Sequence record: SRR31156797_5453 | Direction: 5' to 3' (one strand) | DNA: 20,000 nucleotides | In this document: positions 1,613-16,115 of the stretch, piece by piece | Layout of the letters: each line of letters starts with the position of its first letter | Numbering within the stretch: position 1 is the first letter of the stretch | Translations under genes and position numbers: made by a program | Notes under the pieces: model-generated | Seen by the model: only the letters and a program-made list of their open reading frames with translations | Database searches by the model: none | What the model was told of the DNA's origin: nothing

Positions 1613-3313
1613 CTAGGACTGTTTTAATCTCAAAATTCCCTCATCAGGTGTCACAAAAAGCGTTTTTTGATTCTCATAAATGACGAATCCAGGCTTGGCA
1701 CCATTCGGTTTCCGAATATGTTTGACTTGCACGTAGTCCACCGGTACTTGGGCAGATTGACGATATTTTGAGAAATATGCGGCAAGCTCTGCAGCTTCCA
1801 TTAAGGTTGTCTCACTAGGATCATCCGAACGAATGATGACATGCGAACCAGGAATGTTTTTAGTGTGCAGCCAGATATCACTCTTACGAGCTGTTTTTAA
1901 GGTCAGTTGGTCATTTTGTAAATTGTTTTTTCCGACGAAAATTTCAGTTCCGTCTGAAGAAAGAAATCGTTCTGGTTGCGAAGGAGCGGCTTTTTTACGC
2001 TGTTTCGTCCGATTTTTGACATAGCCTTGTGCAATCAGTTCTTCCCGAATAACCGCCAGATCCATTGGAGAGGCGATTTCTAATTGGGCTAACACGGATT
2101 CGAGATACGCGATTTCTTCTTTCGTTTCGGCAATCTGCTGATGGACCAGTTTGACAGCATTTTTTAATTTCTGATAACGTTGAAAATATTTCTGAGCATT
2201 TTGATTGGGAGAAAGAGCGGGATCTAATTTGATCGTCAAAAGCCGATTCTCATCATAGTAATTTTCCAAATCAACTGAAGCAGCACCACGGGGGACTTGA
2301 TTCATAAAGGTCGTCAAAAGCTCACCTTTTTGACGAAATTCTTCGGCGTTTTCTGAATCGATTAACGTTTGTTGGCGTTTCTTTAACTTCAATTGGTTCC
2401 GTTTCAGTTCATTCTCAATCTTCTTTAGTAATTCGCCACCTTGTTGTTTGACCCGATCTCTTTCCGCCTTGTCGTGATAAAACGCATCTAAAAGCTCGCT
2501 CAGACTCTGATAAGAGGTGACAGTGGTGGTCGCATCGATCAATGATGGATAGGGAATTGGTGTAAAATATTCCTTTTTCTCTGACTGGAGATAACTTGGT
2601 GCTAGCTCCTGGGTAAGCTCTGTAAAGAAAGCTTCCCACTGACGCAGTTTTTCATTGGGATTGGCATTGATTCGAGCGATTAATTCTTCTGCTGTATCGC
2701 GGCCTAAGCCTTGGAATCGTTGTTGAAGTTCTTTTGCCGTCAAGGGATCGATGGTCGATAATTCTTCAAAAATTTTGGTGCGAGAGGCTGTAAAAGGATT
2801 AAGTGTTGTTTGCTTTGGTGGTGCAATATAAGTAGCACCCGGTAATAAAGTACGATACGTATTTTGTGAATGACCAATGTGTTTGATTGTATCGACAATT
2901 TTTCCGCTCGTCTTATTCATTAATAAAATCGTGCTGTGACGGCCCATCAATTCGACAATCAAGACGAGGGATTGTAAATCACCTAGTTCATCTCGTCGAG
3001 TAAAATGAAAATGGATCACACGGTCATTGTCGATTTGTTCGATTGATTCTAAGATCGCCCCTTCTAAATATTTCCGCAGCATCATCAAGAAATTCGGTGG
3101 GGTTTCTGGATTGCTATAGGCGATCGTTGTGCATTGCACACGAGCATAGGTGGGATGTGCGGATAGCAAAAGTTTATGATTTTTCCCTTGGGCACGGAGC
3201 ACAAATACGACCTCATTTTCATAAGGTTGATGAATTTTGTTCACACGTCCACTGGTTAATTGATTTTGTAATTCTTTGACCATTAAATGGGTAAAAACAC
3301 CATCAAAAGACAT
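1613..3313 (-). CDS. rqcH: Rqc2/RqcH ribosome quality control protein (NFACT family; FbpA/PavA-type 'fibronectin-binding protein')
   Basis: 566 aa. N-terminal MSFDG, NDRVI and ELMGRHS motifs, coiled coil, NAQKYFQRYQKLK, C-terminal NFACT-R motifs VGKNNLQND, WLHTKNIPGSHV, AAYFSKYR and KPNGAKPGFVIY. RBS-like AAGAGGG upstream. Confidence 0.95.
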   Translation of the reverse strand: MSFDGVFTHLMVKELQNQLTSGRVNKIHQPYENEVVFVLRAQGKNHKLLLSAHPTYARVQCTTIAYSNPETPPNFLMMLRKYLEGAILESIEQIDNDRVIHFHFTRRDELGDLQSLVLIVELMGRHSTILLMNKTSGKIVDTIKHIGHSQNTYRTLLPGATYIAPPKQTTLNPFTASRTKIFEELSTIDPLTAKELQQRFQGLGRDTAEELIARINANPNEKLRQWEAFFTELTQELAPSYLQSEKKEYFTPIPYPSLIDATTTVTSYQSLSELLDAFYHDKAERDRVKQQGGELLKKIENELKRNQLKLKKRQQTLIDSENAEEFRQKGELLTTFMNQVPRGAASVDLENYYDENRLLTIKLDPALSPNQNAQKYFQRYQKLKNAVKLVHQQIAETKEEIAYLESVLAQLEIASPMDLAVIREELIAQGYVKNRTKQRKKAAPSQPERFLSSDGTEIFVGKNNLQNDQLTLKTARKSDIWLHTKNIPGSHVIIRSDDPSETTLMEAAELAAYFSKYRQSAQVPVDYVQVKHIRKPNGAKPGFVIYENQKTLFVTPDEGILRLKQS

Positions 3314-4525: not shown

Positions 4526-4552
4526 AAAAATCTGACAATTTGACAGAAAATT
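4526..4552 (+). promoter_or_regulatory. Candidate tandem CodY boxes abutting the -35 of the transporter promoter
   Basis: ATTTGACAGAAAATT (4538-4552, 3 mismatches) and AAAAATCTGACAATT (4526-4540, 4 mismatches) versus consensus AATTTTCWGAAAATT. Confidence 0.4.
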
Positions 4553-4553
4553 G

Positions 4554-4582
4554 TTGACGTTTTTTTATCAATAGGCTAAACT
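4554..4582 (+). promoter_or_regulatory. Sigma-A promoter of the Trp-leader/ABC transporter operon
   Basis: TTGACG (4554-4559)-N17-TAAACT (4577-4582). Confidence 0.8.
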
Positions 4583-4626
4583 GAATTCAATCAAGAAAGA
4601 AAACAAGTTGAGAAGGAGGAACAATC

Positions 4627-4680
4627 ATGAAACTATTTATTCCATTGCAAGTGAAATCATGGCAAAACTGGCGTAGATAG
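4627..4680 (+). CDS. Putative Trp-sensing leader peptide MKLFIPLQVKSWQNWRR (17 aa)
   Basis: Strong RBS AAGGAGGA (4613-4620) 6 nt before the ATG. TGG codons at 4660-4662 and 4669-4671. Lies between the promoter and attenuator hairpins upstream of a TrpX-family transporter. Too short for the ORF track. Confidence 0.85.
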   Translation: MKLFIPLQVKSWQNWRR

Positions 4681-4766
4681 TTGTATTGATGGGACCTCAT
4701 TCCATAGATACAACTTTTTAGAGAACCTTCTAAAGTGCTGTATCTATGCTGGTAGTTGAATTTATC

Positions 4767-4797
4767 GCCGCATAGGACAACCTTCTATGCGGCTTTT
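4767..4797 (+). terminator. Leader terminator T1 (conditional)
   Basis: Perfect 9-bp stem GCCGCATAG (4767-4775)/CTATGCGGC (4785-4793) followed by TTTTGCTT (short U-tract). Confidence 0.65.
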
Positions 4798-4805
4798 GCT
4801 TACTT

Positions 4806-4838
4806 GCAATTGCCGTCACATAGGCAGTTGCTTTTTTT
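4806..4838 (+). terminator. Leader terminator T2 (conditional)
   Basis: Stem GCAATTGCC (4806-4814)/GGCAGTTGC (4823-4831) with one G-U pair, followed by T7. Confidence 0.8.
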
Positions 4839-4899
4839 GTTCTCAAAAACCGTAAAAACGAAAACATGAAAAACTTAAGCAGAAAAAGGAGAATGAAAA

Positions 4900-5952
4900 A
4901 TGAAAAACAAGGGATTAATTGCATCGGTTGCCGTTATTTTATTATTTTTAGGAGCGACCTTTGTCTATCAGTTAGGAATGAGAAGTGGGACCAATCAAGC
5001 CAGTGAGACTTCGGAACCAGTAGAAAAAGCTGAAAAAACAGTTGGGATCCTGCAGTTTGTCAGTCATGAAGCGTTAGATGCGATCACCGAGGGGATCAAA
5101 GAAGGCCTTAAAGAATCAGGCTATACCGAAGGGGACAACTTGACGATCGAATTCCAAAACGGCCAAGCGGATCAAAGTAAATTGGCAACGATGAGTCAGC
5201 AGCTGCTAAATAAAGATGCCGACGTTTTGGTTGGGGTAGCAACACCCGCAGCACAAGCGTTGGCGAATGTCACTCAGGATGTACCAATCGTTTTAGGAGC
5301 GGTCACTGATCCAGTTGGGGCAAATCTCGTGGCAGATATGGATCAACCCGGCGGAAATATCACTGGTGTTTCAGATAAAGCACCCGTCGCTGCGCAAATC
5401 AAACTAGCAAAAGATTTGCTACCGGAGGCAAAAACAGTCGGCATTTTGTATTCTTCGACCGAAGACAATTCGAAATACCAAGTGGCAGAAGCAGAAGCTG
5501 CTGCCGAAGAAAATGGCTTGACCAGCAAATCGTATGCCGTTCCTTCAAGTAACGAAATTGCTCAAATGGTGCAAGTGATGGCACGAGAAGTCGACTTTAT
5601 CTATATTCCGTTAGATAATACGATTGCAAACGCAATGCAGACGGTAGTACAAGAAGCCAATAAATCAAAAACGCCCATCATCACGTCTGTTGATACGATG
5701 GTGGAACAAGGCGGCTTAGCAACGGTTGGGCAAGATCAATTTACGATTGGGGTCGAAACCGGGAAGATGGTGGCAGCAATTCTTGACGGGACGGCCGAAC
5801 CTGCGACAACGCCGATCTATACATTCAGCGATGGCGAAACGATCATTAATGAAACACAAGCGCAGTTATTGGGAATCACTATCCCAGAAAACCTCAAAGA
5901 CGAGGCAAAATTGATTACAACGACACCGGAAAGTGAAGCAAGTGATGAGTAA
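4900..5952 (+). CDS. trpX: Tryptophan/aromatic amino acid ABC transporter substrate-binding protein (TrpX family)
   Basis: Motifs VGILQFVSHEALD, NGQADQSKL, VATPAAQAL, GAVTDPVGA, GGNITGVSD, EDNS, PLDNTIANA. N-terminal hydrophobic anchor without a lipobox Cys. RBS AAAGGAG. The Trp-rich leader supports the specificity. Confidence 0.85.
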   Translation: MKNKGLIASVAVILLFLGATFVYQLGMRSGTNQASETSEPVEKAEKTVGILQFVSHEALDAITEGIKEGLKESGYTEGDNLTIEFQNGQADQSKLATMSQQLLNKDADVLVGVATPAAQALANVTQDVPIVLGAVTDPVGANLVADMDQPGGNITGVSDKAPVAAQIKLAKDLLPEAKTVGILYSSTEDNSKYQVAEAEAAAEENGLTSKSYAVPSSNEIAQMVQVMAREVDFIYIPLDNTIANAMQTVVQEANKSKTPIITSVDTMVEQGGLATVGQDQFTIGVETGKMVAAILDGTAEPATTPIYTFSDGETIINETQAQLLGITIPENLKDEAKLITTTPESEASDE

Positions 5953-6027
5953 CAATTAGGAACAGCAATCACCTGCGATCACCGAGAGAGTCTTGAAAGA
6001 GAAAACTTGTAAGAATATGGAGGAAGA

Positions 6028-6915
6028 ATGATGATTGTTTCAGCAATAGGGCAAGGGCTACTTTGGGGAATCCTGGGATTAGGGATTTTTATGACCTATC
6101 GTATTTTGAATTTCCCGGATATGACGACGGAAGGGTCCTTTCCGTTAGGCGGTGCTGTCTGTGTGACAGCGATCACCCATGGGGTGTCGCCCGTCTTAGC
6201 GACTTTGTTAGGAGTATTGGCTGGGATGTGTGCGGGCTGTGTGACAGGACTTCTTTATACAAAAGGCAAAATTCCCGTGATTTTAGCAGGTATTTTGGTG
6301 ATGTCTTCATTGAACTCGGTCATGCTGTTTGTGATGCGCTCACCAAACCTCTCTTTATTAAACCAACCGAAAATTCAAGATTTTTTTACTAGAATGAATT
6401 TACCGAATTATTATGATACGGTGATTATCGGATTGATCATGGTCTTGTTGATTGGGGGCGTCTTGGTTTACTTTTTCCATACCAACTTGGGTCAAGCTTA
6501 TATTGCTACCGGGGATAATGAACACATGGCCAAGTCAATGGGAATCAATACGGATCGAATGAAAATCATTGGACTGATCGTCTCCAATGGCGTGATCGCA
6601 CTCTCAGGCGCATTGATCGCTCAAAACGACGGCTACGCCGACATAAGCAAGGGAATCGGTGTGATCGTTATCGGACTGGCGTCAATCATCATTGGTGAGG
6701 TATTATATGGTGAATTGACCTTGCTGGAACGTCTGATCGCTATCGTGATCGGCAGCATTATCTACCAATTATTGATACTATTTGTGATCAAAGCTGGATT
6801 TGATACGACTTACTTGAAGATCTTCTCTGCAATCGTCTTGACGATCTGCCTGTTGATCCCTCAATTTAAACAAGCCTTGCATCTACGCACTGGTTTTGAA
6901 ACGGAGGATGAATAA
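6028..6915 (+). CDS. ABC transporter permease (partner of TrpX)
   Basis: Multi-pass hydrophobic protein with RILNFPDMTTEGSFPLGGAV, ATGDNEHMA and GVIVIGLASIIIGE. RBS GGAGG. Confidence 0.92.
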   Translation: MMIVSAIGQGLLWGILGLGIFMTYRILNFPDMTTEGSFPLGGAVCVTAITHGVSPVLATLLGVLAGMCAGCVTGLLYTKGKIPVILAGILVMSSLNSVMLFVMRSPNLSLLNQPKIQDFFTRMNLPNYYDTVIIGLIMVLLIGGVLVYFFHTNLGQAYIATGDNEHMAKSMGINTDRMKIIGLIVSNGVIALSGALIAQNDGYADISKGIGVIVIGLASIIIGEVLYGELTLLERLIAIVIGSIIYQLLILFVIKAGFDTTYLKIFSAIVLTICLLIPQFKQALHLRTGFETEDE

Positions 6916-7673
6916 TGTTAGCCTTAAAAAAAGCCTTTAAAGTTGTCGGCAACGGACCGAATGAGAAAAAAGTGCTCTTGAATAAAATCGATCTTTCTTT
7001 AAAACCAGGAGAATTTGTCACGGTCGTCGGAGGAAATGGCGCCGGCAAAAGTACGCTATTCAACTGCATCTCAGGCACCATGCCCTTGACGAGTGGGCAA
7101 GTGATGATCGATGATCAAAACGTGACCGCACTTTCGGAAGAAAAACGTGCCCGCTTTTTGGCACGTGTCTTCCAAGACCCGAAAATGGGCACTGCTCCCC
7201 GTATGACAGTGGCAGAAAATCTGCTGTTAGCACAAAAAAGAGGGCAAAAACGGTCACTTGGTCTTCGACAACTCCAAGGACAAAGGGAAATGTTCTTTGC
7301 GCTTTGTAAAGAAATCGGCAATGGGTTGGAAAATCATTTGGATACGCCAACGGGCAGTTTATCTGGTGGTCAACGACAGGCACTAAGTTTATTGATGGCA
7401 ACGATTCAAACACCAAAACTGTTGTTGCTAGATGAACATACGGCTGCGTTAGACCCAAAGACCTCCAAACAGCTGATGCAAATCACTGCAAGACGCGTGG
7501 AAGAACAAAACCTAACTTGTCTCATGATCACCCATCGGATGGAAGATGCATTAAAATACGGAGACCGCCTGATCCTGCTCAGAAAAGGGGAAATCGTCAA
7601 GGATCTTTCAGCAGATGAAAAAGCTCGCTTAAGTTTACCAGAACTGTTACTGTTCTTTGAAGACGACTTATAA
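6915..7673 (+). CDS. ABC transporter ATP-binding protein
   Basis: Walker A GGNGAGKST, signature LSGGQRQ, Walker B LLLLDEH, H-loop ITH. TAATG coupling to the permease. Confidence 0.95.
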   Translation: MLALKKAFKVVGNGPNEKKVLLNKIDLSLKPGEFVTVVGGNGAGKSTLFNCISGTMPLTSGQVMIDDQNVTALSEEKRARFLARVFQDPKMGTAPRMTVAENLLLAQKRGQKRSLGLRQLQGQREMFFALCKEIGNGLENHLDTPTGSLSGGQRQALSLLMATIQTPKLLLLDEHTAALDPKTSKQLMQITARRVEEQNLTCLMITHRMEDALKYGDRLILLRKGEIVKDLSADEKARLSLPELLLFFEDDL

Positions 7674-7738
7674 GCCCTTGATAGAACAGTGTTTTCAAAA
7701 AAAATAATCAAATAAATGAAAAAAATAAGAAAAAATCA

Positions 7739-7767
7739 TTGACATCTTTCAAAGTTAAACCTATACT
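7739..7767 (+). promoter_or_regulatory. Sigma-A promoter of the aro operon, with upstream A-rich (UP-like) tract
   Basis: TTGACA (7739-7744)-N17-TATACT (7762-7767). Confidence 0.9.
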
Positions 7768-7802
7768 TAGGTCAATCTTACATCAGTTTGGAGCGAAGGA
7801 CT

Positions 7803-7868
7803 ATGCAAAAATTATTGCTAACGAACCCCACACAACTGAATAAATATTACTTTAGCTATTTTAGATAG
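7803..7868 (+). CDS. Putative Tyr/Phe-sensing leader peptide MQKLLLTNPTQLNKYYFSYFR (21 aa)
   Basis: Purine-rich GGAGCGAAGGA before ATG 7803. Codons TAT TAC TTT AGC TAT TTT AGA TAG give 3 Tyr and 2 Phe in the last 7 sense codons. Lies upstream of the operon that makes Tyr and Phe. Confidence 0.88.
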   Translation: MQKLLLTNPTQLNKYYFSYFR

Positions 7869-7945
7869 GTTTGTATTCATGAAGGCATGGGTACAAACGC
7901 TAAGTTTGTATCTATGATGGCTAGAGCATTTCGTAATGAATTCGC

Positions 7946-7983
7946 AGCCACGTAGATCGTAAAATCTATAGTGGCTATTTTTT
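7946..7983 (+). terminator. Leader terminator T1 (conditional)
   Basis: AGCCACGTAGAT/ATCTAT(A)GTGGCT stem with loop CGTAAA, followed by ATTTTTT. Confidence 0.75.
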
Positions 7984-8020
7984 ATATTCACATATCGGCG
8001 CTGTCGCTATGTAATGTTTG

Positions 8021-8067
8021 AAGGTGTTCACTGTAGATTCTTAAATTTACGGTGGACATCTTTTTTT
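8021..8067 (+). terminator. Leader terminator T2 (conditional)
   Basis: 19-bp stem with 4 G-U pairs, AAGGTGTTCACTGTAGATT/AATTTACGGTGGACATCTT, loop CTTA, T7 at 8061-8067, just before the aroE RBS. Confidence 0.85.
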
Positions 8068-8086
8068 GTTGAAAGGAATGAACCAG

Positions 8087-8956
8087 ATGAAACAAATGAT
8101 AACCGGTCACACACGGTTGGCGGCACTATTTGCCAAACCAGCCAAACACAGCATCTCTCCAGCGATGCACAATCTTTCTTTTGAAGAACAAGGGATCGAC
8201 GCCGTGTATCTGGCCTTTGATGTTGAGCCGGATGATTTAGCCGCTAGTATCCAAAGCATCCGTCAGTTGGATCTCTTAGGTGTCAATCTATCAATGCCCC
8301 ATAAAATGGCAGCAGTACCGTTGATGGATGAATGCTCACCAGCAGCCGAGCTGATCGGCGCAATCAATACAATCGTCAATCAAGAGGGGCGATTGATTGG
8401 GCACAATACAGATGGTATCGGCTTTATGCGCGCACTTGAAGACATTCAAGTGTCGATCATTGGAAAAACGATGACTGTGATCGGTGCAGGTGGAGCAGCG
8501 ACAGCAATCATTAGTCAAGCTGCACTAGATGGTGTCAAAACAATCCGTGTCTTTAACCGCAAGGATGAGTTTTATCCAATCATCCAGGAAAAATTGACAC
8601 AGATCGCAGAAAAGACCGCCTCTGAAATCACATTAACGGATTTAGAAGATCAGACGGCTCTAAAAACAGCCATCGATCAAAGCAGTCTTTTAGTTAATGC
8701 TACTGGCGTGGGGATGAAGTCGAATGATACGGTAAGTCCTCTAAAAGACAAAACACTCTTGCGGGAATCATTAGCTGTCTATGATGTCATCTATAATCCA
8801 AGAGAAACGCAGCTTTTGAAAGATGCGAAAGAAGTCGGTGCCAAAACTGCAAACGGCTTAAGCATGTTGCTGTATCAAGGTGCAGCTGCATTTAAACTTT
8901 GGACAGGCCAAGAAATGCCTGTTGAAAAAGTAAAAGCACTTATTGAGTCCATGTAA
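8087..8956 (+). CDS. aroE: Shikimate dehydrogenase
   Basis: HSISPAMHN, NLSMPHK, GAINTI, GHNTDGIGF, IGAGGAA, NATGVGM, DVIYNPRET, GLSMLLYQGA. Start moved from 8066 to ATG 8087 because RBS AAAGGA is at 8072-8077. Confidence 0.93.
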   Translation: MKQMITGHTRLAALFAKPAKHSISPAMHNLSFEEQGIDAVYLAFDVEPDDLAASIQSIRQLDLLGVNLSMPHKMAAVPLMDECSPAAELIGAINTIVNQEGRLIGHNTDGIGFMRALEDIQVSIIGKTMTVIGAGGAATAIISQAALDGVKTIRVFNRKDEFYPIIQEKLTQIAEKTASEITLTDLEDQTALKTAIDQSSLLVNATGVGMKSNDTVSPLKDKTLLRESLAVYDVIYNPRETQLLKDAKEVGAKTANGLSMLLYQGAAAFKLWTGQEMPVEKVKALIESM

Positions 8957-8996
8957 AAAATAAAAAAATTAGAAAAAACGAAAGTAGGAAGAAAAA

Positions 8997-10022
8997 ATGA
9001 TCGTAATTATGAAACCAGGCGCTACGCCAGAACAAGTTGAAGTTGTTGTAACTAGAATCAAAAAAGAAGGCTTAGATGTTCAAGTCAACCAAGGAAAAGA
9101 ACAGGTCGTTATCGGGTTAAAAGGGGATACACGCCGCATCCAAGATGTTGCTTTTCGCAGCTACGAAGGTGTCGAAGATGCCATTCGGATCTCAAATACT
9201 TACAAATTGACCTCTCGTGAGTTCCATCCGCAAGATACGGTTGTGGATGTAGATGGTGTGAAAATCGGTGACGGCAACTTTGTTACGATGGCTGGTCCAT
9301 GTTCGATTGAAGGCTTAGACCAAATTCGTGAATGTGCCCGAATCGCCAAAGCTGGTGGTGCACAAATCTTACGTGGTGGTGCCTTCAAACCCCGCACGTC
9401 GCCTTACGCATTCCAAGGGCTTGAAGAAGAAGGGCTAAAATACATTCGCCAAGCTGCTGATGAAACTGGCATGAAAATCATCACAGAAGTCATGGACGAA
9501 GGACATATCGATATGGTGGCGGAATACAGTGATATTTTGCAGATTGGTGCTCGGAACATGCAAAACTTCAAATTGCTAGCTGCCGTTGGAAAAACTGGGA
9601 AACCAATTGGCCTTAAACGAGGCATCTCAGGCACGATCGACGAATGGTTGAATGCAGCGGAATACATCGCTGTTCAAGATAAAAGTGAAGTGATTTTCAT
9701 TGAACGTGGGATCCGAACTTACGAAACAGCAACCCGTAATACCTTTGATCTAAGTGCAGTACCAATCATCAAAAAACTGAGCCACTTCCCAATCATCGTC
9801 GATCCTAGTCATGGAACAGGTATCTGGGATCTCGTACCACCAATGGCAAGAGCGGGTGTTGCTGCCGGCGCCGATGGGATGATCGTAGAGATCCATCCAG
9901 ATCCAGCCAATGCTTGGTCTGATGGTCCTCAATCACTTAACGAAAAAACGTACATGAACATGATGAAAGAAGTCCATATCATGGAAAAAGCGATGAAAGA
10001 AATCAAAGCGTTGCAAGACTAA
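8997..10022 (+). CDS. aroF: DAHP synthase (class I-beta, with N-terminal ACT/ferredoxin-like regulatory domain)
   Basis: MIVIMKP N-terminal regulatory domain, [57 protein letters not shown]. Confidence 0.95.
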
Positions 10023-10058
10023 GCGTGAAGACAACCAATAAAAGAGGTGCAAAAATCA

Positions 10059-11114
10059 ATGTTACACATTCACTTAGAAGACCATTCCTATGATATCCTC
10101 ATTAAACGAGGGGCGTTTCAAAAAGTCGGAACCTGGGTGCAACAGTTGTGGGACAAACAGCGCATTGCCGTCATTACAGACAGCAATGTCGCACCCCTGT
10201 ATGGCGGACAAATCGTCGATTCCATAACCGCTGCCGGGTTTGAAGCGACACTGTTAATCGTACCAGCCGGCGAAAAAAGCAAATCACTAGAGCAAGCAGC
10301 TAGTTTATATGATGGTCTTGCCCAATTCGGAATGACCAGAAGCGATGGGATCATTGCCCTTGGTGGCGGTGTGATCGGTGATCTCGGAGGATTTGTTGCT
10401 TCTACTTATATGCGCGGCATTGATTTCTTGCAGATTCCGACGACGTTATTGGCACAGGTCGATTCAAGTATCGGCGGAAAAACAGCTGTAAATACTGGCA
10501 GTGCCAAGAATCTCGTTGGCACGTTTGCCCAACCAGCCGGTGTGATGATCGATCCAGATTTACTTGAAAGTTTGCCGCTTAAACGCGTCCAAGAAGGCAT
10601 TGCTGAAATCATCAAGTCAGCCGCTATTGCAGATCCTGAACTTTGGCAAACGTTAGCAGGTTTGAATGATGAAGCCGATTTGTTGGCCCACGCTGAAAAT
10701 GTGATCACAGCTTCTTTAAAGGTTAAACAAAAAGTAGTGGAAGAAGACCCCTTTGATCATGGTAGTCGTCTGACACTGAACTTCGGTCATACGATCGGTC
10801 ATGGCTTAGAAAGAACGGCTGCTTTTGAGACAAGTCACGGAGAAGGCGTTGCGATGGGGATGATTATGATCACCCGACATGCAGAAGTCACCGGATTAAC
10901 ACCAAAAGGTACGACCCAGCAACTTACAGAAATGGTTGAGAAGTTTCACTTGCCGATTACACCAAGGGAAATAGATAAAGAGCAATTATACCAAGCAATC
11001 ACTCATGATAAAAAAGCCCGCGGGCAACAATTGAAGATTATTCTATTAGAAGCGATCGGTCAGGCGAAAATCGTGACGATCCCGACTGAAAAAATCAAAG
11101 ACTACCTAGTATAA
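10059..11114 (+). CDS. aroB: 3-dehydroquinate synthase
   Basis: GEKSKS, ALGGGVIGDLGGF, PTTLLAQVDSSIGGKTAVN, KNLVG, LNFGHTIGH, HGEGVA. Start placed at ATG 10059 (RBS GAGGTG 10044-10049). Confidence 0.96.
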   Translation: MLHIHLEDHSYDILIKRGAFQKVGTWVQQLWDKQRIAVITDSNVAPLYGGQIVDSITAAGFEATLLIVPAGEKSKSLEQAASLYDGLAQFGMTRSDGIIALGGGVIGDLGGFVASTYMRGIDFLQIPTTLLAQVDSSIGGKTAVNTGSAKNLVGTFAQPAGVMIDPDLLESLPLKRVQEGIAEIIKSAAIADPELWQTLAGLNDEADLLAHAENVITASLKVKQKVVEEDPFDHGSRLTLNFGHTIGHGLERTAAFETSHGEGVAMGMIMITRHAEVTGLTPKGTTQQLTEMVEKFHLPITPREIDKEQLYQAITHDKKARGQQLKIILLEAIGQAKIVTIPTEKIKDYLV

Positions 11115-11133
11115 GAAAGGAAGGTAACGGATC

Positions 11134-12300
11134 ATGCGTTATATTACAGCAGGCGAATCACATGGACCAGAGTTGACCGCCATTATCGAAGGGTTACCGG
11201 CAGGATTGCCATTAACAGCGGAAGACATCAATTTTGAATTAGCGAGACGACAAACCGGCTATGGTCGTGGGGGACGGATGTTGATTGAAAAAGACCAAGT
11301 CCGTATCACTTCCGGTATCCGTCATGGAAAAACATTAGGCTCTCCTGTGACTTTAGTGGTCGAGAACAAAGATTGGAAAAATTGGACCAAGGTCATGGCA
11401 ATCGAAGAGGTACCAGAAAAAGACCGCAAACTACGACGAGTGGCACGACCAAGACCTGGTCATGCTGACTTGGTCGGCGGCATGAAATACCACCATCAAG
11501 ATCTACGAAACGTCCTGGAACGTTCATCTGCCCGGGAAACGACTATGCGGGTAGCCATCGGCGCAATCGCGAAGAAAATTTTGAAGGAGCTTGGCATCGA
11601 TGTGGCAGGTCATGTAACGATGTTAGGCGGCATCAAAGCAGAAATTCCAGAAGGCTTGACTGTCAAAGAAATCGCACAACGCTCTGAAGCCTCGGAAGTA
11701 AGAGTCTTAGATCCATCTGTCGAGGAAGAAATTAAACAGTTGATCGATCAAACGAAGAAAAATGGTGATACGATCGGCGGCGTAGTGGAAGTGCTTGTTG
11801 GCGGCGTTCCTGCTGGTCTTGGCAGTTACGTGCAATGGGACAAAAAACTTGATGCGAAGATTGCCCAAGCCGTGGTCAGTATCAACGCCTTTAAAGGTGC
11901 TGAGTTCGGTGTTGGCTTTGAGGCAGGTGTTTTACCGGGTTCTAAAGTCATGGATGAGATTTTATGGGACGAACAACGGGGCTACACCCGTCGCAGCAAC
12001 AACCTAGGCGGGTTTGAAGGTGGCATGACGAACGGTGAACCAATCGTGGTTCGTGGTGTTATGAAGCCGATCCCAACCTTGTACAAGCCATTGCAAAGTG
12101 TGGATATCGACAGCAAAGAACCGTATAAAGCAAGCGTCGAACGCTCAGATAGCACCGCTGTACCAGCAGCCAGTGTTGTTTGTGAGAGTGTGGTGGCGAC
12201 AGTGGTGGCCAATGAACTATTAGAAAAGTTCCCAAGTGATTCATTCGCAGAATTGACTGCATCTGTTCAAGCGTATCGAGAATACTTGTTAACCTACTGA
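11134..12300 (+). CDS. aroC: Chorismate synthase
   Basis: [47 protein letters not shown]. Confidence 0.97.
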
Positions 12301-12344
12301 TTAAAGAACCAGCAAAAATTCCAGTAGAAATGAGGATTCTTTTC

Positions 12345-13430
12345 ATGAACCAAAATATCTTTGTCGCCGGTCTAGGGTTGATCGGCGCTTCCTTAGCAAA
12401 ATGTATCAAAACGTCACATCCCCAAACCTATCTAATGGGGTGGGATCACTGTCGCAAAACCAATGAGATCGCATTAGCAACAAGATTAGTAGATAAAGTG
12501 CCCCCTTCATTTTCTGAAGGTGCTGTCCGTGCCGACGTGATTCTGTTGGCATTGCCGGTAGAAATCACCAAAAAATATCTTGCCGAACTGGGGGCACTTT
12601 CATTAAAGCCTTCGGTCCTGGTAACAGACACCGGCAGTACCAAAGCAGAAATCACGCAATTCGCCGAGTCCTTTTCCTTTGATTTTATTGGGGGCCATCC
12701 GATGGCTGGCTCTCATAAATCAGGGATCACAGCAGCCGATGAGAACCTTTTCGAGAATGCTTACTATATCTTTACACCGACGAAAAGTCAGCGGATGGAA
12801 GAGCTGCAAGAGCTTTTTCGCGGCACTAGAGCCAAATATGTGGCGCTTGCGCCAAAAGAGCATGATCAAATCACAGGGATGTTGAGCCATTTGCCCCATA
12901 TTATTGCTTCGGGATTAGTCAATCAGGCAGATGCCTTCAACCACGAACACCCTAGAGCGCAGCAACTTGCAGCAGGCGGTTTTCGCGATATCACTCGCAT
13001 TGCTTCTTCAGATCCTCGTATGTGGACCGATATCTTATTGAGTAATCGACAGGAGCTGCTGCAGCTGATCGATGAGTGGCAAAAACAAATGACGACCATG
13101 GCTCACTGGTTGCAGAAAAAAGACGAAAGGGCGATCTTTCGGTTTTTTGAATCCGCGAAGGAAACACGGGATCAATTGCCGGTTCATCAAAATGGGGCGA
13201 TCCCAGCATTCTATGATCTATTCATCGATGTACCGGATCATCCCGGCGTTGTCGCTGAAGTGACGGGGCTATTGAGCGAACATCAGCTCTCTTTGATCAA
13301 CTTGAAAATTCTTGAAACTCGAGAAGATATTATTGGTGTTTTACAGATTTCATTCAAAACGCAAAATGATTTGCTGCAAGCAGAGCAGCTGATTCAAAAA
13401 AAGACGACCTATTCATGTCGAAAAAAATAG
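12345..13430 (+). CDS. tyrA: Prephenate dehydrogenase with C-terminal ACT domain
   Basis: GLGLIGAS, TDTGSTK, GGHPMAGS, HD....SHLPH, AGGFRDITRIA, ACT motif VPDHPGVVAEV. Start placed at ATG 12345 (RBS GAGG 12332-12335). Confidence 0.95.
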   Translation: MNQNIFVAGLGLIGASLAKCIKTSHPQTYLMGWDHCRKTNEIALATRLVDKVPPSFSEGAVRADVILLALPVEITKKYLAELGALSLKPSVLVTDTGSTKAEITQFAESFSFDFIGGHPMAGSHKSGITAADENLFENAYYIFTPTKSQRMEELQELFRGTRAKYVALAPKEHDQITGMLSHLPHIIASGLVNQADAFNHEHPRAQQLAAGGFRDITRIASSDPRMWTDILLSNRQELLQLIDEWQKQMTTMAHWLQKKDERAIFRFFESAKETRDQLPVHQNGAIPAFYDLFIDVPDHPGVVAEVTGLLSEHQLSLINLKILETREDIIGVLQISFKTQNDLLQAEQLIQKKTTYSCRKK

Positions 13431-15232
<1,802 letters not shown>

Positions 15233-15233
15233 A

Positions 15234-16115
15234 ATGAAGATTGGTTATTTAGGACCGAAAAGTTCCTTTACGCATTTAGCTGCGCAAGAAGCTTATCCGG
15301 AAAATACCTGTATCCCCTATGGATCGATTCCGCTTTGTATTCAAGCGCTAGCTAACGGCGTGATCGATCGCGCGGTCGTTCCGAACGAGAACTCATTAGA
15401 AGGATCTGTTCATGCCACGATTGATACGCTCTTTCGTCAAAATCAGTTGAGCATCGAACAGGAAGTTATTTTACCGATCAATCATCAATTGTTAGTTTCT
15501 CAGCAATCAGCAAAAGACAACCGTCCCATCACTAAGATAATTTCTCATCCGCAAGCCTTAGCGCAATGTGCCGACTTCATCGAAGCCCGATTTGCTGGAG
15601 CTACTGTTGAGGCGGTTGCTTCCACAACGACTGCAGCAGCCTACGTAGCAAAACATCCAGAAGAAGCAGTTGCGGCGATTGCTTCCAAAGAAGCGGCATT
15701 GGCCTATCAATTAACGATCAAAAAAACCAATATTCAAGATGTTGCCTTTAATCAAACCCGTTTTTGGGTTTTGACGAAGAAAGCAGCAAACACCCAATTA
15801 CCAGAGCAGACTGCTGAGAAAGCAACGATTTTTGTGACGCTCCCGGCAAATCGACCGGGGATCTTGCACAAAATCTTAGCAACCTTTGGCTGGCGAGAAA
15901 TTGATTTAAGCAAAATTGAATCGCGGCCTTCAAAAACCACCTTAGGGGAATACTTTTTCGTGATCGATCTGGTGATGGACAAGCCGTGGCAACTGATTGT
16001 AAATGCCTTTGAAGAGATTCAGTTGTTGGGTGGTCAAGTCCATCTTCTCGGCGTGTATTCCGTAAATGTTGTTGAGGAAGTGACAAAAAATGACTCAAGT
16101 CAAAATAAAATTTAG
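15234..16115 (+). CDS. pheA: Prephenate dehydratase (monofunctional, C-terminal ACT domain)
   Basis: YLGP..SFT, VP.ENSLEGSV, SHPQALAQC, NQTRF, LSKIESRP. Start placed at ATG 15234, just after the aroK stop. Confidence 0.95.
   Translation: MKIGYLGPKSSFTHLAAQEAYPENTCIPYGSIPLCIQALANGVIDRAVVPNENSLEGSVHATIDTLFRQNQLSIEQEVILPINHQLLVSQQSAKDNRPITKIISHPQALAQCADFIEARFAGATVEAVASTTTAAAYVAKHPEEAVAAIASKEAALAYQLTIKKTNIQDVAFNQTRFWVLTKKAANTQLPEQTAEKATIFVTLPANRPGILHKILATFGWREIDLSKIESRPSKTTLGEYFFVIDLVMDKPWQLIVNAFEEIQLLGGQVHLLGVYSVNVVEEVTKNDSSQNKI

Follow-up and report, generated by a model that had tools for sequence, protein, structure and literature searches.

Two homologous leaders preceding a trpXYZ-like transporter operon and an aro operon are probable ribosome-mediated attenuators with exchanged sensor codons

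The locus and its two leaders

In the 20,000-nucleotide stretch SRR31156797_5453 (the window, numbered from its first letter), the region flanked by an EfbA/RqcH-like gene and a long operon for aromatic amino acids holds two leaders, each lying 5' of one of two adjacent operons: the trpX leader (4554-4899) precedes a trpXYZ-like ABC transporter and the aro leader (7739-8086) precedes the aromatic operon itself (Table 1). Both contain a promoter-like site, a Shine-Dalgarno (SD) site, a short open reading frame (sORF) ending in codons cognate to the downstream genes, the hexamer AGATAG, a common core and terminators. The reading developed below, to which we give a probability of roughly 0.85 on the grounds of comparative sequence and modelled folding, is that one homologous family of ribosome-mediated (leader-peptide) transcription attenuators, re-programmed by codon swaps, includes both leaders; the best reading of the related genomes is that this family is widespread in Lactobacillales and coexists there with T-boxes.

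The trpX leader opens at the -35 box of its promoter-like site (position 4554) and has a strong SD site before the Trp sORF. The TAG of its AGATAG hexamer (4675-4680) is the stop codon of the sORF, as it is in the aro leader (7863-7868). Sequence TTGTATTGATGG sits inside trpX segment B (4680-4692), and TGTATCTATG is identical in both leaders, at 4739-4748 and 7907-7916. An earlier sequence-only reading of this stretch had described the same layout of promoter, sORF with cognate codons at its 3' end, AGATAG and common core, and all of these elements and the strings quoted for them were found where that reading had placed them. The leader peptides, which it had matched to downstream function, agreed with the gene families assigned by NCBIfam: WQNWRR (peptide ends are quoted up to the stop codon throughout) stands before TrpX, the window binding protein scoring 464 bits against NF041285 (cut-off 390), and YYFSYFR stands before aro/tyrA/pheA.

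The stretch is represented in 18 RNA-library runs as assembled contigs (four examined), in which both leaders and the genes are covered and from which RNA ends, strand and level are not readable. Contigs of the aro leader from three of the runs split and overlap at 7845-7881, in the sensor-codon/B region, as expected if the same stretch is repeated elsewhere in the organism (a third leader, described below); these breaks have no bearing on RNA ends.

Table 1. Coordinates of the two leaders, their segments and the neighbouring genes in the window.
Feature	Coordinates	Strand	Basis and remarks
trpX-leader promoter-like site, TTGACG-17-TAAACT	4554-4582	+	consensus scan, 9/12
Shine-Dalgarno site of the Trp sORF, GAAGGAGG	4612-4619	+	sequence; SD and ATG kept in relatives
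Trp leader sORF, MKLFIPLQVKSWQNWRR, end WQNWRR	4627-4680	+	Trp codons 4660-4662 and 4669-4671; stop codon 4678-4680
trpX segment A, CTGGCGTAGATA	4668-4679	+	sORF 3' end; pairs with D (anti-antiterminator); pairing conservation
trpX segment B, GTTGTATTGATGG	4680-4692	+	pairs with C, keeping C off D; pairing conservation
trpX segment C, CCATAGATACAAC	4702-4714	+	pairs with B or D; P1 left arm of the published trpB motif
trpX small apical hairpin between C and D	4715-4735	+	fold; 68% paired in relatives, MAFFT alignment weak here
trpX segment D, TGTATCTATGCTGG	4739-4752	+	hub: partner A, C or E (antiterminator)
trpX terminator 1, then T-run	4767-4793	+	E 4767-4777, F 4783-4793; pairing conservation
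trpX second terminator-like hairpin	4806-4831	+	terminator prediction
trpXYZ-like ABC transporter	4900-7673	+	binding protein 4900-5952, permease 6028-6915, ATPase 6915-7673
aro-leader promoter-like site, TTGACA-17-TATACT	7739-7767	+	consensus scan, 11/12; near-consensus
Tyr/Phe leader sORF, MQKLLLTNPTQLNKYYFSYFR, end YYFSYFR	7803-7868	+	sensor codons 7845-7862; stop codon 7866-7868
aro segment A	7850-7865	+	pairs with D; minimum-free-energy fold; pairing conservation
aro segment B, GTTTGTATTCATG	7869-7881	+	pairs with C; pairing conservation
aro segment C, CATGGGTACAAAC	7886-7898	+	pairing conservation
aro segment D, GTTTGTATCTATGATGGCTAGAG	7904-7926	+	hub; pairing conservation
aro terminator 1, then T-run	7946-7976	+	E 7946-7957, F 7964-7976; folds
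aro terminator 2	8020-8063	+	5' arm, containing CACTGTAGAT, complementary to F
aroE, DAHP synthase, aroB, aroC, tyrA, aroA, aroK, pheA operon	8087-16115	+	NCBIfam
EfbA-type fibronectin-binding/RqcH-like gene	1613-3313	-	NF038240 1085.7 bits (cut-off 1025); unconnected to the leaders

A common core with relatives in Rfam

The decamer TGTATCTATG was found three times in the window, in both leaders and as its reverse complement within the trpX leader, against 0.04 occurrences expected and with none of 200 shuffles reaching three, and AGATAGN{0,2}TTGTATT was found exactly twice (0.00 expected). The pattern TAGATAGNTTGTATT had no match in the window, as it ignored a 2-nt gap that differs between the two leaders. 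When 69 leaders of the two types were aligned together by MAFFT, the core columns were near-invariant, and the Rfam models RF02863 and RF04312 cross-matched, so that the single homologous scaffold proposed by the sequence-only reading is borne out. That reading had not recognised the scaffold as a named family; a cmscan against Rfam puts the aro leader in RF02863 and the trpX leader beside RF04312 as a sub-threshold relative. The aro leader (7852-8042) matched RF02863, sRNA_2410, from end to end (model positions 1-196, 85.8 bits with a gathering score of 61, E 4e-13), the model starting inside the sORF at its last codons. The trpX leader (4701-4804) matched the full model of RF04312, the trpB motif, at 50.8 bits (E 2e-6), under the gathering score of 59, and its copy in the nearest genome, G001, scored 49.2 bits.

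By score the trpX leader is thus no member of RF04312, and it aligned column by column with relatives that score 59.1-70.6 bits against that model. It also has the P1 hairpin, the intrinsic terminator and the antiterminator in the right arm of P1 that define the trpB motif, and its location agrees: the window copy lies 5' of TrpX, and 25/28 of the relatives lie before TrpX-type proteins, with the other 3/28 before TrpB. The trpB motif was reported as a strong riboswitch candidate of which more than 900 representatives are known across Firmicutes and Fusobacteria, situated mostly before an uncharacterised ABC transporter and sometimes before trpB, and consisting of hairpin P1 and a terminator, both with covariation (Narunsky et al. 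2024, PMC11109978). sRNA_2410 was described as a 195-nt transcript of E. faecium, detected by Northern blot "as two transcripts" and listed as a small RNA (sRNA) candidate (Sinel et al. 2017, PMC5593968); the two transcripts fit the two tandem terminators of the aro leader.

A mechanism acting through an sORF is described for neither family in the available text of PMC5593968 and PMC11109978. In a full-text literature search, which left subscription journals and supplements out of scope, "trpB motif" was found in one paper only and "trpX" together with "leader peptide" in none, and the main text of Ravcheev et al. 2013 on the regulons of lactic acid bacteria contained none of attenuat*, leader peptide or aromatic. 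The attenuator family and its codon swapping were described nowhere in the literature so searched, a scope that leaves a prior description possible. Leader peptides of other kinds have been reported in Firmicutes: for His in bacilli, none having been known before outside Proteobacteria and Actinobacteria (Naville and Gautheret 2010); for Leu in Streptococcus, the leucine leader being called rare in Firmicutes (Millman et al. 2017); and for His in the B. cereus group, Peptostreptococcaceae and Erysipelotrichales (Ashniev et al. 2022).

Conservation of the sORF and its match to the downstream genes

Relatives were collected from G001 and from 151 sampled genomes of the same order (Lactobacillales), and about 135 related leaders were read individually. 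RF04312 matched 90/151 genomes at E up to 1e-3 (26 over cut-off) and RF02863 matched 85/151 at E up to 0.01 (42 over cut-off), with two families of the order (f6, 0/2 genomes; f7, 0/18) giving no match to either. A core model of our own, R1, matched 105/151 genomes; its B:C pairs stand one column out of register, which makes it in effect a sequence profile, and it was used only to locate candidates that were then read, the correct B:C register being that of model R2.

An ATG-initiated sORF containing Trp was found in all of the 30 best RF04312 loci, drawn from six families, ending 4-26 nt before the motif, with a W-x-x-W pattern in 26, W-x-W in one and a single W in three. Likewise, all 31 RF02863 loci had an sORF ending in (Y/F)FSYFR at model position 17. 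Among 40 weaker matches that were fetched, 15 were of Trp type, 21 of Tyr/Phe type (one of these a duplicate locus, and four with sORFs missed by the SD filter and identified by reading the sequence), one of His type and one of Ile/Leu/Val type, and two were false. The sORFs had 14-25 codons and the N-termini of their peptides were unrelated among leaders. An SD site (duplex free energy at or below -5 kcal/mol) and ATG in frame with the sensor codons, without an intervening stop, were present in 65/75 distinct leaders, compared with 0/75 in each of the other frames and 46/3000 dinucleotide shuffles. Across related species the sORF, its frame, its SD site and the five helices described below were all kept.

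The class of the sensor codons agreed with the class of the downstream gene for all 53 proteins compared. Behind Trp-type leaders, 24 of 28 downstream proteins were TrpX over the NCBIfam cut-off, one scored 373 bits (cut-off 390) and three were TrpB. The 25 proteins behind Tyr/Phe-type leaders comprised 12 encoded by aroE, two DAHP synthases and 11 TrpX-like binding proteins, all of which scored under the TrpX cut-off (269-347 bits) and are therefore taken as paralogues; single further cases were TrpP behind Trp codons, pheA and the chorismate synthase gene (aroC) behind Tyr/Phe codons, and a family-5 binding protein.

Re-programming of the scaffold through its sensor codons, another proposal of the sequence-only reading, gained further versions, each before matching genes. 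sORFs with Phe only (ending FFFSFFR or GFFGFFR) and with Tyr only (YYGYYR or YYSYYR) both precede TrpX paralogues. In another family of the order, sORFs on the common scaffold end NLLISVIR, VIITSIIR or AIIISIIIR and precede biosynthetic acetolactate synthase (ilvB; TIGR00118) and IlvA (TIGR01127), both over cut-off, and LivJ-like binding proteins, named from their best family match, which was under cut-off; this Ile/Leu/Val version was found at 7/19 loci read in that family and at one further locus (L096). A His version ending NHHNHHMK precedes a HisZ-like gene (hisZ) in 3/9 genomes of one genus, and, as read from the sequence, its CAT CAT codons pair with ATGATGG of segment D. Outside the order, R2 matched only one further family (4/4 genomes), with sORFs ending FYFSYFRYGL and similar before TrpX-like proteins, and RF04312 matched 1/150 other genomes of the phylum (L110, G266). 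This last locus has a Tyr-rich sORF, ending KLNNAYYCNYYRQSLY, on the same scaffold before a 437-aa protein that, from its N-terminus read by eye, looks like a transporter of the sodium:neurotransmitter-symporter family.

A third leader of the nearest genome (L010; G001 C50:17432-17627, minus strand) is of Tyr/Phe type, with the sORF end MLKTTVSPQLNIFYFSYFR and 83.6 bits against RF02863, and precedes a 325-aa TrpX paralogue of 332 bits, under the TrpX cut-off. No T-run follows the E:F hairpin of this leader, whose real terminator is situated farther 3'. In every type a Ser (AGC) or Asn/Ser codon stands in the middle of the sensor block, as F-S-Y-F, I-S-V-I or W-Q-S/N-W (window 4666-4668 and 7854-7856). 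In Tyr/Phe and Ile/Leu/Val leaders this AGC pairs with an invariant GCT of D (alignment columns 13-15 with 109-111), which would explain why the sensor codons flank the Ser codon. At 7833-7841 the aro sORF has CAACTGAAT (Q-L-N), and (Q/K)-L-N recurs 2-3 codons ahead of the sensor codons in both leader types and in several families; these codons pair with nothing in the computed folds.

Some loci departed from the pattern. In one Phe-type leader, with an sORF ending NNFFFSFFR (L119; G082 C1:461347-461448), segment D seems absent and a terminator comes immediately after C; the long ORF that follows encodes part of an ABC ATPase, and this leader may be a decayed copy. Another Phe-type leader (L099) is separated by 400 nt from the first long ORF, which is glucosamine-6-P-isomerase-like. 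Three candidates with neither sORF nor core (L077, L081, L125) were rejected as family members.

Five mutually exclusive helices

Six segments are predicted in each leader. A would be the 3' end of the sORF with the sensor codons and B would lie at or right after the stop codon, followed by C, D, E and F; D would act as a hub with A, C and E as partners, B would partner C, and E:F would be the terminator. The five mutually exclusive helices A:D, B:C, C:D, D:E and E:F are conserved with compensatory changes. In the Trp set (46 sequences, aligned by MAFFT and not fitted to structure) the proportion of cells paired was 81.6% for A:D, 85.2% for B:C, 98.8% for C:D, 88.3% for D:E and 96.8% for E:F, compared with 25-50% in slid-register controls, and pairs changed on both sides numbered 6/12, 6/13, 4/9, 3/8 and 8/9, respectively. 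In the Tyr/Phe set (45 sequences) A:D was 96% paired, B:C 94% (with double changes at 8/13 pairs), C:D 92% and D:E about 90%. As D must keep its complementarity with three partners, C with two and E with two, the sequence conservation of the core can be explained by multi-way pairing alone and would need no ligand pocket.

Folding with a modelled ribosome

Folding was then modelled by a ribosome-edge scan in which the RNA 3' of the modelled ribosome edge was folded up to the terminator loop, a kinetic approximation that leaves F out. In the trpX scan A:D and B:C dominated for edges up to 4666, except at about 4646-4658, where D:E took probabilities of 0.2-0.76, a rise that we put down to upstream sequence pairing with A in the model. 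D:E reached 0.83-0.90 only at edges 4670-4682, corresponding to the A-site on the first Trp codon (+10) to the second (+12), and placing the stop codon in the A-site (+12) gave C:D at 0.79 and D:E at 0.36. Similarly, in the aro scan D:E was at 0.91-0.96 for edges 7850-7872, with the A-site from the Tyr codon at 7845 to the Phe codon at 7860 and thus on any of the six Tyr/Phe/Ser codons, and once the stop codon had reached the A-site (+12) the values were 0.99 for C:D and 0.35 for D:E. The antiterminator is therefore predicted by this model to form only with the A-site on the sensor codons. Scoring E as paired with anything upstream, 5' untranslated region included, was abandoned as noisy from spurious long-range pairs, and helix-specific probabilities 3' of the ribosome were used instead.

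Tandem terminators and a possible relay

Two or more terminator-like hairpins were found at 36/45 Trp-type and 18/30 Tyr/Phe-type loci. In the G001 copy of the window aro leader (L009, whose printed leader stretch matches the window; the window row itself was outside the run), a duplex between F and G, the 5' arm of terminator 2, was computed at -13.8 kcal/mol against a shuffle mean of -4.5, with 0/200 shuffles as low, and similar complementarity was present in 7/8 aroE-type relatives. This suggests for aroE-type leaders a modelled relay in which D:E frees F and F blocks terminator 2. Relay control of the second terminator was rejected for Trp-type leaders, where F:G exceeded shuffles in only 3/29 (window fraction 0.29). 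The hairpin of the relatives that is equivalent to 4806-4831 has a conserved GCAATT(T/G)CC in its 5' arm. Some transporter-type Tyr/Phe leaders have no T-run after E:F, and there, as read from L010, E:F looks like a relay hairpin only.

Discussion

The features of leader-peptide attenuation are present at both leaders: an sORF with a ribosome-binding site, a cluster of cognate codons, and exclusive pairings with the sensor codons in the first segment. The conserved sORF and SD site, the conserved alternative helices and the position-dependent folding all agree with the view, also taken in the sequence-only reading, that these are leader-peptide attenuators, and we infer translation of the sORF, stalling of the ribosome and a response to the amino acid. 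The short ORF after the promoter would be translated and its last codons would act as sensors, W-Q-N-W for trpXYZ and Y-Y-F-S-Y-F for aro/tyrA/pheA. With no ribosome on the leader, A:D and B:C would form and leave E free, E:F would follow and transcription would stop. With plentiful amino acid, a ribosome at the stop codon would cover A and B, C:D (the published P1) would form, and E:F would again stop transcription. When charged tRNA is scarce, a ribosome stalled on the sensor codons would cover A and not B, B:C would hold C, D:E would form before F is made and RNA polymerase would read through. In the aro leader the freed F may then pair with the 5' arm of terminator 2 and so relay the decision.

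Several observations weigh against this account. The naked aro leader already shows D:E at 0.6-0.7 in the truncated model, and the state without translation therefore relies on A:D forming first. When the full terminator was included in equilibrium folding with a masked ribosome, the probability of the terminator was 0.98 throughout the Trp scan and 0.74-0.96 for aro, with a single exception of 0.47 (AAA codon in the A-site, extension 12), so that the switch is visible only in the kinetic approximation leaving F out. The trpX leader of the window falls below the gathering score of RF04312, the sORF has a single Trp codon in 3/30 of the best Trp-type leaders and in several weaker ones, and 10/75 leaders fail the SD test at -5 kcal/mol. 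Relatedness among the loci makes the counts overstate independent support, and as the sensor codons lie inside A:D, part of their conservation could stem from constraints on the RNA. The second trpX terminator (4806-4831) had no significant complementarity to F, and its passage by readthrough is not covered by this account; the RNA-library data are assembled contigs only, which cannot reveal RNA ends or levels. Full-length equilibrium folding was rejected as a test of the switch, as it says little about a co-transcriptional choice. Classic attenuators too fold to the terminator at equilibrium, the decision there being kinetic.

The working hypothesis published for the trpB motif is a metabolite riboswitch: tryptophan or a related compound would bind C:D (P1) and stabilise it, the terminator would form, and the sORF would be incidental. 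The classification as a strong candidate, the covariation in P1 and the terminator and the antiterminator in the right shoulder of P1 (PMC11109978) all speak for it, as does the high sequence conservation of the core. We nevertheless judge it very unlikely. The published model starts at C and omits what is conserved further upstream, namely the sORF and segments A and B, which show covariation with C and D; the conserved nucleotides belong to helices for which several other partners exist, not to a pocket; and the same core stands before Trp, Tyr/Phe, branched-chain and His genes with only the sORF codons and their complement in D differing. With one core before the genes of four amino-acid groups, a ribosome sensor fits better than a ligand pocket. 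The authors of the trpB motif themselves "cannot rule out" that a protein factor acts or that the motif is a classic attenuator, and their ilvB-II candidate proved to act through an upstream open reading frame (uORF) (PMC11109978).

There is equally little probability that a factor acting on the core, whether a TRAP- or PyrR-like protein or an uncharged tRNA as in a T-box, selects D:E or E:F. The unusual conservation of the core sequences GTATCTATG and CATAGATAC could reflect a binding site, and protein binding was left open by Narunsky et al. 2024 (PMC11109978), but the multi-partner pairing of D itself explains that conservation, and a single core would have to be served by different factors in each of four amino-acid groups. 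The T-box model RF00230 had no match in the window at gathering score, the only level at which the aro leader was tested, nor any within 4540-4900 when E up to 10 was allowed; neither a specifier-loop nor a T-box sequence was evident, and no candidate regulator gene is linked in the window. Least probable of all is that the terminated aro leader (sRNA_2410) mainly regulates other mRNAs in trans, its site 5' of aroE being secondary: RF02863 is typed "Gene; sRNA" in Rfam, the RNA was detected by Northern blot in E. faecium (PMC5593968) and attenuator-derived RNAs can act in trans in Sinorhizobium (PMC6614838), but all 25 elements tested stand immediately 5' of a TrpX paralogue or of genes for aromatic amino acids, in the same orientation, the conserved sORF and alternative pairings are typical of cis control, and an additional role in trans, though possible, is unnecessary for the anatomy.

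Returning to ribosome-mediated attenuation, we consider it probable that a single ancestral six-segment cassette radiated through Lactobacillales and at least two other families of the phylum, was re-programmed at least four times (Trp; Tyr and/or Phe; Ile/Leu/Val; His) by swaps of 2-6 sensor codons and of their complement in D, and now unites the trpB motif, with its more than 900 members, and sRNA_2410 in one ribosome-dependent sensor class beside T-boxes, the aro version relaying its decision to a second terminator. If this is true, the trpB motif leaves the list of unsolved riboswitches, the "sRNA" sRNA_2410 of Rfam gains a cis-regulatory function, and leader-peptide attenuation is common and modular in Lactobacillales. 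The family would offer a natural and compact example of an RNA switch re-targeted to another amino acid, useful for engineered sensors, and the leader codons would predict the substrates (Tyr and/or Phe) of uncharacterised ABC transporters of the TrpX-paralogue type.

Comparison with known systems

The mechanism proposed here, leader-peptide attenuation, is a known one, apparently in variant form, and parts of the present family carry other labels in Rfam. The trp, phe, his, leu and ilv operons of enterobacteria (trpL, pheL and others) are the classic leader-peptide attenuators. Their mechanism is described in PMC9413887. As proposed for the leaders described here, they have a short ORF that is translated and in which cognate codons cluster, a choice of terminator or antiterminator made by the stalled ribosome, and termination as the default both without translation and with full translation. 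In contrast to them, the present leaders have six segments rather than four, a hub D with three partners, an extra B:C hairpin right after the stop codon and tandem terminators; one scaffold serves several amino acids; and mostly ABC transporters and the common aro pathway would be controlled, in Lactobacillales. None of the leader families of Rfam matched, whether the whole window was scanned at gathering score, the trpX leader with E up to 10 or 12 leaders with E up to 0.1.

A precedent for one scaffold with exchangeable codons within Lactobacillales is the leu/phe leader of Lactococcus lactis (RF01743), which is said to carry either Leu or Phe codons. RF01743 found its L. lactis match as a positive control, and it was rejected as the family of the present leaders: the trpX leader gave no match at E up to 10 and the 12 leaders none at E up to 0.1. 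Across the order 0/151 genomes matched it over cut-off and 1/151 at E up to 0.01.

The ilvB-II motif of Corynebacterium was likewise first taken for a riboswitch candidate and then shown as a uORF attenuator rich in Ile/Leu/Val codons (Narunsky et al. 2023, via PMC11109978), and differs in phylum, sequence and its single specificity. To the trpB motif (RF04312) the trpX leader is alike in that its segments C to F align to the whole model, with the same gene association and with the antiterminator in the right arm of P1; the difference is that the published model begins at C, after the sORF, whereas here the sORF with its Trp codons, A and B are also conserved. The aro leader matches sRNA_2410 (RF02863) from end to end and the two E. 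faecium transcripts fit its two terminators, but sRNA_2410 was described as an sRNA candidate, and shikimate, attenuat* and leader are absent from the main text of PMC5593968.

T-boxes act on the same kinds of Firmicutes genes, also choose between terminator and antiterminator and also respond to tRNA charging, but they sense uncharged tRNA directly, without translation. The sequence-only reading had placed the two leaders in the stead of T-boxes, which holds for these two operons and not genome-wide: G001 has 24 T-box matches, 17 of them over cut-off, several before tRNA-synthetase genes (pheS among them) and others before methionine genes. Two tandem T-boxes (L152, L157; C56:240406-240930) precede the gene for anthranilate synthase component I (trpE) in G001. 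As judged from sequence, ribosome-based sensors in this lineage would control the uptake of Trp, the common aro pathway together with tyrA and pheA, and one TrpX paralogue; with its trpE T-boxes and its trpX leader, the same lineage would thus sense Trp by tRNA for biosynthesis and by the stalled ribosome for uptake.

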